Shown one piece after another: positions 2,459 through 36,660 of a stretch of 64,000 nt of DNA. Made by a program: the position numbers and the translations under genes. Within the stretch, counting starts at the first letter, position 1, and every line of letters begins with the position of its first letter. Source of the stretch: an uncultured Verrucomicrobiae bacterium (GTDB lineage: Bacteria; Verrucomicrobiota; Verrucomicrobiia; Chthoniobacterales; Chthoniobacteraceae); assembly GCA_963769025.1 (NCBI GenBank), contig CAVYKI010000003.1, forward strand, positions 960,001 through 1,024,000, read 5' to 3'. The notes under the pieces were generated by a model. The model did not search any database, was not told where the DNA came from, and saw only the letters and a list, made by a program, of their open reading frames with translations.

Positions 2459-3954
2459 TCAAAAGCAACCCGCGCGCAGATCCCGGAACGCCGCACTCAG
2501 AAAATCGAGCATGCGCGAAGGCGTCAGCGATTCCACGCTCTCGCCTCCGTGCGAGATTGCGAGTTCACTCGCGCGCCCGCACAGCCATGCACCGAGCCGC
2601 GCGGCGTCGAAGGGCCGCACATGCTGGCCGATGAGTGCGGCGATGACTCCCGTAAGCACATCACCCATCCCGCCGACCGCCATCCCCGGCGTGCCCGTGG
2701 TGTTGAAACTCAGCTGTTCGCCCACCTTCCCGACGAGCGTCCGCGCGCCCTTCAGCAGCAGCGTCGAAGGATATCGTTGCGTGAATGCAGCCACCGTCTC
2801 CCGGCGCGGACGCTTGATCGACCCGGGAGCCAGCCGCTCCATCTCGCCGGGATGCGGCGTGAGCACGCGTTCCCCCGCAGCTTCGCCGAGCGCCTCGCAC
2901 ATCGGCGGAAATCGCATTCAGTCCGTCCGCATCGAGCACGAGAGGCTGCGCAAGCTTCCGGACCAATGCGGCGACATCCACCGGCGGATGCGCGCCGAGA
3001 CCGGGGCCAATCGCAAAAACGTCGTGCTGCTGCTCCAGCAATTCCTCCAGCACGGGTAGCGGTCGCACCATCACCTCCGGCGCGGCCTTCACCGCGAGCG
3101 AGTCCGCGACATCGCGCGGCGCATAAAGTGTCACGAGCCCCGCGCCCGCGCGCACACAGGCCGCCGAGCACAGCACCGCCGCACCGAGGTAGCCGCGCGA
3201 TCCTGCGACGATTCCGACGCGCCCGAAGTCTCCTTTGTGCGTGTCGAAATCGCGCCGCGGGAGCAACGGCGCGAGCGCATCCGGGGTCGCCACCGCTGCG
3301 TCCGCGTCAGTGGCGTCGAGCCGCCTGGTGAGTTCCGCGCAGCGGCAGAACGCTCAGGCGGCCGGTGAAATTCGCCGCCGCATCCGCGACGAGTCCGCAT
3401 TTCGCGAAGCCGACGGACAGCGTGTGATCCGCCACGACACACGCCGGGTCGGCCTCGCCGGTGTCGCCATTCAGCCCGGTGGGAATGTCGAGCGCGAACA
3501 CCGTCGCATTGCTGCCGCGTCGCCGTTGGTTGATGGCGCGCGTGATTCCGCTCAGCGGGTCGCGCAGCCCTCCTTTCGCGCCGATGCCGAGGAGTCCGTC
3601 GAGCACCACGAGCGGCTCGCCGGGGATCGATGCAAGCTGCCCGATCTCCGCACGCCGGCACCCCGCGGCGGCGGCAAATTTCGCCTTCGGCAGCGCGCCC
3701 CACTCCGCATCGGGATATGCCGCGACCAGGCGGACATCCCAATCCCACAGCGCGAGGTGCCTCGCGGCGACGAGCGCATCACCGCCATTGTTCCCTTTTC
3801 CAAACACCGCGACGCAGACGCCAGGCCTCGGAAAAAACTGGCGCACCGCGCGCGCGATTTGCAGGCCGGCCTCCTCCATCAGCGCATCCGCCGACACGCC
3901 TTCGGCGAATGCCCGCTCCTCGAGGGCTTTCATCGCGGCACAGGTGAGGATCAT
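2459..3954 (-). CDS. nnr: Bifunctional NAD(P)H-hydrate epimerase/dehydratase, split by frameshifts near 3300 and 2910 (probable assembly error)
   Basis: Three consecutive ORF pieces carry GKGNNGGDA, THKGDFG...GAGLV, DADGLN, LTPHPGEM and GGMGDVLTG. Confidence 0.9.
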
Positions 3955-3982
3955 CGCGTGGGTGGCCGCCTTCGGCGAAAGT

Positions 3983-32585: not shown

Positions 32586-34388
32586 ATGCCGAAGCCTTTC
32601 TTCATCACCACCGCGATTGATTACACCAACGGCGCGCCGCACATCGGGCATGCGTACGAAAAGGTGCTCGCCGACGTGCTCGCGCGCTATCACCGGCTGA
32701 AGGGCGACGAAGTCTTCTACCTCACCGGCGTGGATCAGCACGGGCAGAAGGTGCAGCAGAGCGCGGAGAAGGCGGGCGTCGAGCCGCAGGAATTTGTGGA
32801 CGGCATCACCGGGAAATTCACCGCGCTGTGGGAAAAGCTCGACGTGAAATACGACGCGTGGGCCGCGACGACGGACCCGCTTCACAAGGATTGCGTGCGC
32901 GCGAATCTGCAAAAGCTGTGGGACGACAAGGATCCCGCGACCGGGCAGAGCCGGTGGATTTACAAGAAGACGCAGCGCGGCTTTTACAGCGTGCGCCAGG
33001 AGCAATTCCTCACGGACAAGGAGCGCGGGCCGGACGGGCAGTTCGGCCCCGAGTGGGGGCAGGTCGAGGAGCGCGACGAGGAGAACTTCTACTTCCGCCT
33101 CACTCAGGCGCCAGCCGCGCCGGGGCAGGACCCCGCGACCGGCCTGCCCGGCTGCGACCCGAAGCAGTGGCTGCTCGATTTCATCGACAAACGAAGCGCG
33201 GACGGAAAGCCGTTCGTCGTCCCCGATTTCCGCGTCGCCGAGTTGCGCAACGCGGTGGAAAAACTCGAAGGCGACCTGTGCATCTCGCGCCCCGCGTCGC
33301 GGCTGAAGTGGGGCATCCCCTTTCCTGAGAGCTTCGGCGAGGGCTTCGTCACCTACGTGTGGTTCGACGCGCTGGTGAACTACATCAGCTTCGCCCCCGG
33401 CCACGATACGGATTTCACCGCCAAGACGCCAAGGCGCCAGGAAGACGAAAATTCTTCCCCGCTTGGCGTCTTGGCGCCTTGGCGGTTCAACGATTTCTGG
33501 CCGCCGCTCCACGTCATCGGCAAGGACATCCTCATCCCCGCGCACGGCGTCTATTGGCCCATCATGCTCAAGGCGATGGGCTTTGCGGATGAGGAAATGC
33601 CGACGCTGCTCGTGCATGGCTGGTGGAACATCGCCGGCGCGAAAATGAGCAAGAGCCTCGGCAACATCGTGGACCCCGACCTCCTCGCCGACAAATACGG
33701 CCCCGAAGCACTGCGCTACTACCTCATGAGCGACATCGCCACCGGGCGCGATGCGGACTTCAGCGAGGAAAGGCTCGTCAGCTCTTACAATGCGGCCCTC
33801 GCAAATTCTCTCGGAAACTTGCTCAACCGCTCGCTGAGCATGGCGGGGAAGTATCGGGAGGGGCGCGTAGTGGATGCGAAAGTGAGCATCCCCAGCCAAA
33901 GATTAATTGTAGGGCAGCAACCGGACCCGGTAGAAATCTCGGTGCCTCCGGCTGGGCAAGACATCATAGATTTTCGCCGAGAGATTCGATCACAATGCAA
34001 CATCTACCCGACGGCGATGGACCATTTTCAAGTTCAGCAAGGGATCGCAGACGCGCTCGATATTGCGCAGCGGTGTAATCGGCTCATTGATGATGAAGCT
34101 CCTTGGAAACTGGCCAAAGACCCGAAGCAAGCTGACCACCTCGACACAGTCCTCTACTCGCTCGCCGAATCCCTCCGCATCATCGCCATCCTGATCTGGC
34201 CGGTGCTGCCGGATGCGGCGCACGGGATTTTTGACCAGCTCGCCTGGAAGCTGGACGAGGCCGGCAAGGACACGCGGTTCCGTCTCGCGGATGCGGTCTG
34301 GGGCGGTCTGCCGGACGGGCATGTGCTCGGCAAACCCGTCCCGCTTTTCCCGCGCATCGAGGCTCCGGCTCCGGCGGCGGAGAAGTAA
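32586..34388 (+). CDS. metG: Methionine--tRNA ligase (short form, Cys-free knuckle, several insertions)
   Basis: HIGH, YVWFDAL, IGKDI, KMSKS, APWKLAK, LFPRI. Confidence 0.96.
   Translation: MPKPFFITTAIDYTNGAPHIGHAYEKVLADVLARYHRLKGDEVFYLTGVDQHGQKVQQSAEKAGVEPQEFVDGITGKFTALWEKLDVKYDAWAATTDPLHKDCVRANLQKLWDDKDPATGQSRWIYKKTQRGFYSVRQEQFLTDKERGPDGQFGPEWGQVEERDEENFYFRLTQAPAAPGQDPATGLPGCDPKQWLLDFIDKRSADGKPFVVPDFRVAELRNAVEKLEGDLCISRPASRLKWGIPFPESFGEGFVTYVWFDALVNYISFAPGHDTDFTAKTPRRQEDENSSPLGVLAPWRFNDFWPPLHVIGKDILIPAHGVYWPIMLKAMGFADEEMPTLLVHGWWNIAGAKMSKSLGNIVDPDLLADKYGPEALRYYLMSDIATGRDADFSEERLVSSYNAALANSLGNLLNRSLSMAGKYREGRVVDAKVSIPSQRLIVGQQPDPVEISVPPAGQDIIDFRREIRSQCNIYPTAMDHFQVQQGIADALDIAQRCNRLIDDEAPWKLAKDPKQADHLDTVLYSLAESLRIIAILIWPVLPDAAHGIFDQLAWKLDEAGKDTRFRLADAVWGGLPDGHVLGKPVPLFPRIEAPAPAAEK
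33414..33489. repeat. Octamer-unit palindromic element inserted in-frame in metG
   Basis: ACCGCCAAGACGCCAAGGCGCCAGG ... CTTGGCGTCTTGGCGCCTTGGCGGT (25-bp arms), bounded by TTCA direct repeats 72 bp apart. Confidence 0.8.
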
Positions 34389-34471
34389 ACGCGTAGACGC
34401 AGAGACGCAGAGAAACATGTCAGGCTGACACGTTTTCTGTCCGCACCTCCGCGTCTCTGCGTCTCCGCGTT
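34388..34471. repeat. Octamer-unit palindromic element at the metG stop codon
   Basis: AACGCGTAGACGCAGAGACGCAGAG ... CTCCGCGTCTCTGCGTCTCCGCGTT (25-bp arms, 2 mismatches). Confidence 0.8.
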
Positions 34472-34545
34472 TCGACCATTTTCACCAGCGGGGACTGGCG
34501 CTTCCGCTCGCGGATGATGGCCGGGAGGGCGGCGGGGCTCCGCAA

Positions 34546-34653: not shown

Positions 34654-34713
34654 CTGTTCAGGAGTTCCGCCTTGTGTCGGCGGGAGACGCGGTGATGCTC
34701 ACCTGTGCCCCGG

Positions 34714-36660
34714 ATGAACAACGCGACGAAAGTCCTCCTGCCCCTCGCCTTCCTGCTCGCGGGGTGGAGTGCCGGGTTTTTCATGGGCGGCGGGGCGGGC
34801 GGGGAAATGGGCGCGGGGCGATCCGCATCGGACGCGGCGGGTGCCGCGGGCGGGCAGCGCGGGAGTTCGCACACGGAGGCGGACGGAATGCCCGGAGGCA
34901 GCGGCTACACCCGCGACGCAAACCTGACCCCCGAGGAACGGCGCGGGCGCATGCTCTCGGGCCTGCTCGCGGCGATGCAGCAGCCGAATGATCTGCGGAA
35001 ATTCCGGAGCATGTTTTCCGCAGTGGAAAAGATCGGGCCGGAGGACATCCAGGCGGCGCTCGAATTCGCGAAGAAGCGGCCGGGCAACGAATGGGGCGGC
35101 GTGGTGTCGATGATCGTGGCGCGCTGGGCGGAGTTCGACCCGCAGTCGGCGGCGGCGTACGCGCTCACGATGAAGGGGAGCAACCGGTGGGAGCGCGACT
35201 TCGCACTTTCCACCGCCGCCAGCGAGTGGGCGCGAAAGGACGGAGCGGCGGCAAAGGCATGGGCGCTGGGGCTGCCGACGGGCAAGGAGCAGCAGACGGC
35301 CGTCGCGGGCGTGGCATCCGGCATGGTGCAGGTGGATGCGAGCGCGGCGCTCGCGTGGGTGAAGTCGCTGCCGCCGGAAATGCGTTCGATGGATGTGTAT
35401 CAGAAGATTTTTTCCGACTGGGGCGGGCGCGATCCGCAGCTCGCCTCGGCACAGGCGCTCTCGCTGCCGATGGGCGAAGGCCGCCAGCAGGCGCTGCTCG
35501 CGGTGGCGAGCCGCTGGGCGGAAAAGGATCCGCAGGCGGCGATGGACTGGCTGGAGCGAATCCCGGAAATCGGCACGCGCAGCCGCGCCATGGCCACGGC
35601 GCTCGGCCGTTGGGCGGAGACGGACCCGGAGGCGGCGATGAGCGCCGCGGAAAAAATGCCGGCGGGCGAATCGCGCAAGCAGGCCTTTGCGAACATCCTC
35701 CAGCAGGCGGCGCAGAAGGATCAGGAGCAGGCGATGCGGCTGATCGAGAAACTCCCCGAGGGCCAGGCCCGGGCGGACGCCGTGCAGCAGGTGGCGAATC
35801 AGCTCGCTTGGCAGAACCCGAAGGCCGCCGCCGAACTCGCCGCGACGCTGCCCGCCGGAAGCAACCGCGACGAGACGCTGCGCAATTCGCTGCGCAACTG
35901 GTCGCGCGAGGCGCCGGTGGAAGCGCTCGCATTCATCGAGAAAAACATGCCGGCCGGCGACGCGCGGCGGCAGGCTTCCAGCGAGGCGGTTGCGACGTGG
36001 GTGCTCAGCGACCCGCACGCGGCGCTGGAATGGGTCATCAAATCGCCGGAACTGAAGTCGGGCGACTACGGCCACGCCGTCTCGAGCTGGGCCGTGCAGG
36101 ATCCGCAGGGCGCGCTGGCGTGGGCGAAGAGCCAGCCGGAAGGCGCGCAGAAGCAGGCGTTCCTCGCCGGCGCGGTCGGCGGGATCTCGAACAATGACCC
36201 CGTGCAGGCCGCGCAGCTCTTTGCCACGCTCGCGCCGAGCGATGCGCAGAAGGCCACGGCGGGCCGAATCGCCGGCACGTGGGCGCGGCAGGATCCCGTG
36301 GCCGCCGCGCAGTGGGTCGTGCAGATCGCCGACCCGTCTGCGCGCGAGGCGGCATTCCCGCAGGTCGTCAATGCGATGGCGCAAAGTGATGTCGCGCGCG
36401 CCGCCGCGTGGCTGGAGAAACTCCCCGCCAGCCCGGAGCGCGACGCCGCCGTCACCGCGTACGCCGGGACGGTGACCGCGCGCGATCCCGAGGGCGCGGC
36501 GAGCTGGGCCGCGACCGTGGGCGACGACAACAAGCGCGAAAACGCCGTGCGGGGCGTGTACCAGCAGTGGAAGCGCTCCGACGAAACCGCCGCAAGCCGC
36601 TGGCTCGCGACAACGCCCGCACTTTCCGACGACGCGAAAAAGCGCATCTCCGGGAAGTAA
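34714..36660 (+). CDS. Membrane-anchored alpha-helical tandem repeat protein of unknown function
   Basis: N-terminal hydrophobic segment; many ~30-aa repeats of the form WAxxDPxAAxxWxxxLPxGxxR. Confidence 0.8.
   Translation: MNNATKVLLPLAFLLAGWSAGFFMGGGAGGEMGAGRSASDAAGAAGGQRGSSHTEADGMPGGSGYTRDANLTPEERRGRMLSGLLAAMQQPNDLRKFRSMFSAVEKIGPEDIQAALEFAKKRPGNEWGGVVSMIVARWAEFDPQSAAAYALTMKGSNRWERDFALSTAASEWARKDGAAAKAWALGLPTGKEQQTAVAGVASGMVQVDASAALAWVKSLPPEMRSMDVYQKIFSDWGGRDPQLASAQALSLPMGEGRQQALLAVASRWAEKDPQAAMDWLERIPEIGTRSRAMATALGRWAETDPEAAMSAAEKMPAGESRKQAFANILQQAAQKDQEQAMRLIEKLPEGQARADAVQQVANQLAWQNPKAAAELAATLPAGSNRDETLRNSLRNWSREAPVEALAFIEKNMPAGDARRQASSEAVATWVLSDPHAALEWVIKSPELKSGDYGHAVSSWAVQDPQGALAWAKSQPEGAQKQAFLAGAVGGISNNDPVQAAQLFATLAPSDAQKATAGRIAGTWARQDPVAAAQWVVQIADPSAREAAFPQVVNAMAQSDVARAAAWLEKLPASPERDAAVTAYAGTVTARDPEGAASWAATVGDDNKRENAVRGVYQQWKRSDETAASRWLATTPALSDDAKKRISGK

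Follow-up and report, generated by a model that had tools for sequence, protein, structure and literature searches.

A palindrome of tandem CGCCAAG units within metG

The window analyzed here, a stretch of 64,000 nucleotides from an uncultured Verrucomicrobiae bacterium (GenBank assembly GCA_963769025.1, contig CAVYKI010000003.1, positions 960,001 to 1,024,000 of the forward strand), contains the methionyl-tRNA synthetase (MetRS) gene metG, and within this gene lies a 70-bp palindrome that accounts for 24 in-frame residues, FTAKTPRRQEDENSSPLGVLAPWR, between the MetRS motifs YVWFDA and HVIGKD (Table 1). The product of metG matched the Pfam families tRNA-synt_1g (2.4e-78) and Anticodon_3, the anticodon-binding domain. 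The two 23-nt arms of the palindrome are 91% complementary, have 24 nt between them, and are made of CGCCAAG units with one purine as separator. The two-unit CGCCAAG pattern was found four times in the window versus 0.24 times expected, a count that none of 100 shuffles reached. When folded as RNA, the palindrome had a predicted energy of −54.2 kcal/mol compared to −27.3 ± 3.2 kcal/mol for shuffled sequences (z = −8.4; 0 of 200 as good). Arm pairing, unit excess, and folding energy all confirm the palindrome that had been noticed in a first-pass annotation of this DNA. That annotation described the arms as three CGCCAAG units; the units are present, but the third one on the left reads CGCCAGG. 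Its placement of the palindrome in frame in an essential, single-copy gene was borne out by the intact reading frame and by a search that found one metG only in the source genome (designated G000; C3, C9, and C13 are its contigs, and the labels G001 to G043 denote other genomes of the genus). On the evidence that follows, we consider it likely that the metG element represents a hairpin cassette copy lacking a gene, carried in frame and read through, a judgment that leaves its mode of movement aside.

Table 1. Coordinates of metG and of its associated hairpin features in the window.
Feature	Position	Strand	Remarks
metG coding sequence (methionyl-tRNA synthetase)	32586..34388	+	600 aa plus stop, intact; open reading frame and Pfam
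24 extra codons, peptide FTAKTPRRQEDENSSPLGVLAPWR	33414..33485	+	MetRS residues 277-300
Left TTCA	33414..33417		flank sequence found in this genome only, no duplication
Hairpin left arm	33417..33439		ACC + GCCAAG-A-CGCCAAG-G-CGCCA; octamer units CGCCAAGR
Hairpin loop	33440..33463		AT-richer than the arms, unique to the metG copy
Hairpin right arm	33464..33486		reverse complement of the left arm; conserved end GGCGGT(TC)
Right TTCA	33486..33489		overlaps the conserved element end GGCGGTTCA
Second hairpin, ACGCAGAG octamer family	34387..34472		26-nt arms, 34-nt loop; overlaps the metG stop codon

Further CGCCAAG hairpins in the genome and its urease operon

A search of G000 with the two-unit CGCCAAG pattern gave 18 matches, whereas the backwards control gave 0. 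Clustering yielded seven loci that share their arms and end in (G)AACCGCC...GGCGGTT(C) but have unrelated loops. The metG palindrome is a member of this repeat family, and the earlier proposal of a dispersed palindromic mini-element is thus upheld by the other copies that the genome search uncovered. Four of the seven loci are located within 2.2 kb, in the urease operon. One hairpin lies in the ureA-ureB gap; another is in frame within ureC and is absent in 13 of the 13 orthologues read; and the ureB-ureC gap contains a 140-aa gene whose start codon is overlapped by a CGCCAAG arm and which is followed by a complete hairpin. This gene is the sole GxxExxY gene of G000 (TIGR04256, 2.5e-43; PF13366, 1.2e-41). 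Seven of 10 relatives have an empty junction, in which three bases separate the stop codon from ATG, and gene-less hairpins of other unit types (GATTTCG; CACCAAG) are found there in G001, G016, and G007. None of the five complete CGCCAAG hairpins has a stop codon in any of the six frames. At the peptide level, recurrence is limited to what the arms encode, as in the stretch LGVLAPWRF, which is common to MetRS and UreC.

In three phyla, the GxxExxY protein takes its start codon and its ∼10 N-terminal residues, M(N/D)RQDAK..., from the left arm (positions 3928-3959 of G000:C3:612500-618500; L093; L150). The outer palindrome, ATGAAC...GTTCAT, would supply an ATG on either strand.

The ureC sequence shifts frame just after the conserved EGAGGG (about positions 2529-2560 of G000:C3:612500-618500, minus strand), and pnp and gltB are also out of frame in this genome, which has a completeness of 83%. 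These properties suggest assembly indel errors rather than pseudogenes. The apparent frameshifts in the three genes could be taken to mean that the metG palindrome is itself a spurious product of assembly. Such an artefact is scarcely conceivable, as the independent assemblies G018, G010, G003, and G042 have related hairpins at the same codon position of metG and the frame is kept.

State of the MetRS loop in related species

We were able to read the loop in 25 of 30 genus genomes, and in 12 of these 25 it contained either a hairpin or a solo arm, with six unit types represented in total. CGCCAAG hairpins are present in G000 and G018; GCGAAG hairpins, with ends GAACCGC/GCGGTTCAA as in the CGCCAAG hairpins, in G010, G003, and G042; hairpins of the 7-nt unit GAAGGAT in G001 and G015; and a CGAAGnn hairpin in G004. 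Solo arms consist of four CAGTCAC units in G009, G002, and G020 and of four CTCTCAA units in G043. No repeat occurs in the other 13 genomes, and 14 orthologues outside the genus also lack the element, so that element-free orthologues exist as had been anticipated. In a metG tree calculated from 865 nt with the loop removed, G018 joined the CAGTCAC-bearing G002 and G020 (support 100/100), G004 joined the empty G014 (100/99), G043 joined the empty G041 (97/92), and the GCGAAG-bearing G010 and G003 joined the GAAGGAT-bearing G001 and G015 (100/97). Sister pairs thus differ in their loop state, and the site changes at a higher rate than the surrounding gene, through gains, losses, or replacements that have occurred repeatedly. 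Moreover, the MetRS loop is a recurrent landing or replacement site because congeners carry other unit families there.

These comparisons also bear on the possibility that the stem arose in place and is maintained by selection in metG, as an mRNA structure tuning translation or as a functional, lineage-specific protein loop, and only resembles the dispersed repeats. Selection on such a feature would be compatible with occupancy in 12 of the 25 genus genomes and with loops that are better kept than their flanks in G001/G015 (98% versus 89.5% identity) and in G002/G009 (92% versus 80%). We regard this explanation as very unlikely, since the same arms occur in noncoding DNA of G000 and in many phyla, the unit type differs between close relatives, three species retain a single arm that is unable to form the stem, and the 13 genus genomes and 14 outside orthologues do without the element.

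Predicted effect on the MetRS protein

The distance between YVWFDA and GKD is 55 residues in G000 and 31 once the 24 residues are removed, compared to 41-42 in element-free orthologues of its clade and 37-45 in all 14 orthologues outside the genus. The loop minus the insert is thus 6-11 residues shorter than in element-free orthologues. The first-pass annotation had stated that precise removal restores the usual spacing; orthologues without the element do exist, but 31 residues are left rather than the usual number, as the element took the place of about 6-10 loop residues. It had likewise expected a 24-aa gap in an orthologue alignment; the insert is indeed absent from element-free sequences, but loop residues are replaced. 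In the occupied alleles the element spans, each time, from just after ...ER to just before a conserved F, and in every one it takes the place of 6-7 residues that the empty alleles of its clade possess; ureC behaves likewise. Because the element occupies the place of loop residues in both metG and ureC, the event was not a simple insertion.

In solved MetRS structures, the alignment is broken or gapped at query residues 270-300 and the insert is absent. An AlphaFold2 model of MetRS built on 20 orthologues had a predicted template modeling score of 0.83, with residues 274-295, between helices 260-267 and 298-304, showing predicted local distance difference test (pLDDT) values of <50. Low pLDDT is expected for an insert that forms a tolerated, exposed loop and fits this description without being proof of it; the 24-residue extension is probably disordered in the protein. 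Excision of the stem from the mRNA would destroy the sole metG message, and therefore it is presumably not cut out. We infer that the inserted peptide is, with fair probability, both made and tolerated.

A wider class of tandem-unit hairpins

A scan of all of G000 for hairpins (9-mer seed, arms of at least 18 nt, loops up to about 130 nt) returned 217 matches, including 71 rows (50 loci) with a 6-9-nt period in the arms; a fifth-order Markov genome of equal size gave 24 matches, 1 of which was periodic. The unit types in G000 include ACGCAGAG (the largest family), GGAACGC, GTTGAGG, GAAGGAT, GGAAGGCA, and a 9-mer around GCAGAT. Forty-four of the 50 tandem-unit loci are open in at least one frame. 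A third in-frame case is a GGAACGC hairpin that splits the DUF1553 domain of a large protein. Two further hairpins that crude gene calling had placed inside genes were found to be upstream of the true starts and were rejected.

Flanking direct repeats at the 50 loci were absent in 33 cases and measured 1 nt in 12, 2 nt in 4, and 3 nt in 1. The metG palindrome is flanked by TTCA copies 72 bp apart, for which two readings had been offered, a target-site duplication and a conserved end. The right TTCA lies within GGCGGTTCA, a sequence common to G018, G010, G003, and G042, and the left flank of these four genomes reads GAGCGA; these results contradict a target-site duplication. The reading as a conserved end holds for the right copy only, which overlaps the end of the element.

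Small genes are associated with the arms. In five congeners, 8 of 10 GxxExxY genes have tandem-unit arms in inverted orientation on either side, the unit varying from gene to gene, and ACGCAGAG units bracket a GxxExxY gene in G015. G000 possesses three TIGR02436 genes, coding for the four-helix-bundle protein of 23S rRNA intervening sequences (IVSs). In one of these, GGAACGC units form the same arm-gene-arm-loop-arm arrangement; arrays of different units flank the remaining two.

Additional features were noted around these genes. At G000:C13:20280-21100, about 250 nt of GGAGACTTGGAGAGGGG-type arrays stand ahead of a TIGR02436 gene, and GGAGACGGG and GAGTCTCAAA arrays come after it in inverted order, making a composite of several unit types. 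A G000 four-helix-bundle gene with GGAACGC arms is located at an ABC ATPase-permease junction, between both genes; at this junction in G004 and G014 the gene is absent and arm-like remnants are kept, with the left one read as the C-terminal tail of the ATPase.

The position of the G000 ACGCAGAG hairpin, at the 3′ end of metG, is taken in G018 by a hairpin of CACCAAG units, and G015 and G004 have remnants of other families there. Because different families are found there among species, the metG 3′ end is a second site of family turnover. Altogether, turnover of families among species was observed at three sites: the metG loop, the metG 3′ end, and the ureB-ureC junction. Downstream of metG, the window also encodes a 651-aa protein (34705-36660, + strand) with ∼35-residue repeats that follow the pattern W..(D/N)P..A..W.

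Distribution across phyla

One-genome-per-species contigs were searched with the three-unit CGCCAAG arm, revealing at least 123 loci in hosts that include Sorangium, Phycisphaerae, Caulobacterales, Burkholderiales, Chloroflexia, Holophagaceae, and Verrucomicrobiota; 80 of the matched loci were fetched. At 31 of the 80, the arm had a partner in inverted orientation at a distance of 68-455 nt, and the GAACCGCC/GGCGGTTC ends were the same. CGCCAAG arms also bracket GxxExxY genes in Sorangium and in a deltaproteobacterial metagenome-assembled genome. A four-helix-bundle gene was found at none of the 80 fetched loci, and a crude codon-position test of these loci gave at most one marginal case of a coding insertion of the CGCCAAG hairpin in other phyla.

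Contigs of relatives from two DNA and two RNA metagenome runs exhibited a drop in depth over positions 33386-33493 of the window, and some relatives' metagenome contigs bridge the loop with a different sequence in between. An RNA library of a peat metagenome (run X16) yielded a 309-nt contig that matched the hairpin alone (33417-33488), with unrelated sequence on both sides; the same hairpin therefore occurs in another context in another organism.

The intergenic hairpins of G000 lie between convergent genes in 13 cases, tandem genes in 19, and divergent genes in 10. This distribution has no gene-end bias, and we therefore rejected the idea that the hairpins are terminators. A broader form of this idea is that the hairpins are modules of use to the host (in RNA processing or stability, as terminator-like structures, or as cruciforms) that spread by transfer and recombination, with the metG copy arising as a by-product of recombination between stems. 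Such modules might be expected at operon junctions and directly after stop codons, where hairpins are indeed found, with different families at the same junction in different species. The all-different loops, the absence of target duplications, and cargo genes that are not co-inherited with arms also agree with this explanation, as does the description, in the accessible part of PMC4990558, of IVS elements with TIGR02436-type open reading frames as selfish in precursor 23S rRNA. We nevertheless find it improbable. The gene contexts are unbiased, a use to the host is not obvious for a stem inside two enzyme reading frames, and identical 25-nt arms across phyla are explained more easily by a selfish, sequence-recognized element.

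Comparison with known systems

An Rfam 15 search of the window at the gathering score detected only a tRNA, and the lax E-value mode added only generic miRNA-precursor hairpins with scores of at most 31 bits versus thresholds of 58-120. Searches of the open literature (subscription-only papers were outside their scope) for GxxExxY, PF13366/PDDEXK_3, and the arm strings gave no description of a hairpin-armed cassette, and the exact arms appeared in 0 papers. Papers listed for GxxExxY dealt with it only incidentally, judging by title and abstract, and searches on IVS and REP/RAYT elements brought up just the known systems discussed below. The hairpin cassette family is widespread and apparently undescribed.

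The first-pass annotation drew an analogy to Rickettsia palindromic elements (RPEs; Ogata et al. 2000), which are read in frame according to the available sections of a review (PMC10969869). The analogy is apt for the outcome, with palindromes in frame in metG, ureC, and the gene for the DUF1553 protein that we take to be translated through, but the family differs. As the same excerpts present them, RPEs comprise several palindromic repeat families that lie in frame in unrelated metabolic genes, are read through, and add a peptide to the host protein. They are set apart by their description as ∼150-bp elements with a conserved peptide (∼50 aa) per family and confinement to Rickettsia. The class to which the metG element belongs, by contrast, measures 70-100 bp, is conserved only in arms that are arrays of 7-9-nt units, has unique loops and gene-bearing full versions, and extends across phyla.

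REP/REPIN elements with RAYT transposases offer a second comparison. In the portions of PMC3116915, PMC3733652, and PMC3333891 that were available, these are short dispersed hairpins tied to a low-copy gene bracketed by repeats, and gene-less copies far outnumber gene-bearing ones, which is a likeness to the present class. The metG-type elements differ from them in having ends without the GTAG/CGTC tag, a PD-(D/E)XK or four-helix-bundle cargo rather than a Y1 HUH protein, arms of tandem units, and copies in reading frames. Movement of a REP/REPIN element by a RAYT (Y1 HUH) transposase, or an ordinary miniature inverted-repeat transposable element (MITE) of an insertion sequence, would agree with a short dispersed palindrome and with the one Y1_Tnp gene in G000. 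This origin is most improbable: the ends read GAACC and bear no GTAG/CGTC tag; the lone Y1_Tnp gene (PF01797; C9:555357-555686) has flanks without arms and is not next to a CGCCAAG copy; and target duplications are absent and no parent insertion sequence shares the arms. A MITE was also rejected on the grounds that no target-site duplication is seen (33 of 50 loci have no repeat) and that the loops are unrelated.

The IVS of Coxiella burnetii with S23p is treated as a selfish element in 23S rRNA in the accessible text of PMC4990558. Like the elements described here, such IVSs are selfish, stem-bounded small cassettes in an essential gene, and TIGR02436 cargo occurs between the same kind of arms. 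The metG element differs by its location in a protein-coding gene, with family members in intergenic DNA and not in rRNA, and the metG copy has no cargo. Integron attC sites are similarly imperfect palindromes that bound small cassettes and keep their structure while the sequence varies. For the present elements, there are no arrays beside attI, the arms consist of tandem units, and no integrase exceeds the cut-off (the best match to the integron integrase model TIGR02249 in G000 scored 85 bits versus a cut-off of 265).

Proposed origin of the metG insert

The cassettes are delimited by inverted arms of three tandem octamers, in this case CGCCAAGR with the ends GAACCGCC...GGCGGTTC, and full-length members hold a small gene between the arms, encoding either a GxxExxY PD-(D/E)XK nuclease or a four-helix-bundle "IVS" protein. 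We propose that one copy entered the variable surface loop that MetRS has between YVWFDA and HVIGKD, either by landing there or by recombination. Its survival would be due to a net change divisible by three, arms without stop codons in any of the six frames, a tolerant loop, and the fact that metG cannot be lost. The mRNA would therefore be read through to yield an enzyme with a 24-residue loop extension. We tentatively suggest that the element may move at the DNA level by structure-directed cutting and joining that leaves no target duplication, perhaps aided in trans by the GxxExxY nuclease; this step is possible and somewhat doubtful. A further extension, which we rate as rather unlikely, is that the stems could serve as both vehicle and landing pad of a structure-directed cassette system, such that a stem already present attracts the next and arms and cargo are swapped at fixed sites.

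Several observations weigh against the proposal of a mobile cassette. The tie to GxxExxY genes is loose, with such a gene located between or beside the arms (within 900 nt) at only 2 of the 80 fetched loci. The G000 GxxExxY protein is 48% identical to the CGCCAAG-armed protein of Sorangium versus 53-57% to those of congeners with other arms. Because these two CGCCAAG-armed proteins are no closer to each other than the G000 protein is to other-armed ones, and CGCCAAG-armed proteins from three phyla fail to cluster, the idea of a cognate nuclease specific to one unit is not supported and was rejected. Cargo and arms, as judged from these comparisons, appear not to be co-inherited. The alleles of metG point to partial replacement of the loop rather than plain addition. 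The loops are all different among copies, unlike those of a copy-and-paste MITE, and no target-site duplication was seen at 50 loci (longest flanking repeat, 3 nt). Loop identity for G000/G018 is 71% versus 83% for the flanks, which makes for a mixed picture across pairs. The assembly has probable indel errors elsewhere, with metG itself open. The organism was present in none of the public sequencing runs, which contained only relatives, the best sharing 0.24 of the sampled words. Finally, movement of the element is itself inferred from sequence rather than witnessed.

Significance

Translated palindromic repeats in essential genes are documented mainly for Rickettsia, and the present case concerns a different, cross-phylum family in a free-living, high-GC bacterium. 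The class is tied to two very common families of unknown function, the 23S-IVS four-helix-bundle protein and GxxExxY (PF13366), the latter listed with function "Unknown" in the accessible text of PMC3424549. Stems of this kind create spurious open reading frames, odd N-terminal extensions, and misleading alignments in genome annotation. With its six unit types in 25 congeners, the loop of metG constitutes a natural series for examining the entry and replacement of stems and the tolerance of an aminoacyl-tRNA synthetase toward extra peptide. If stems do act as vehicle and landing pad, coding loops would carry a fast-turning, hypervariable peptide module in essential enzymes such as MetRS and urease.

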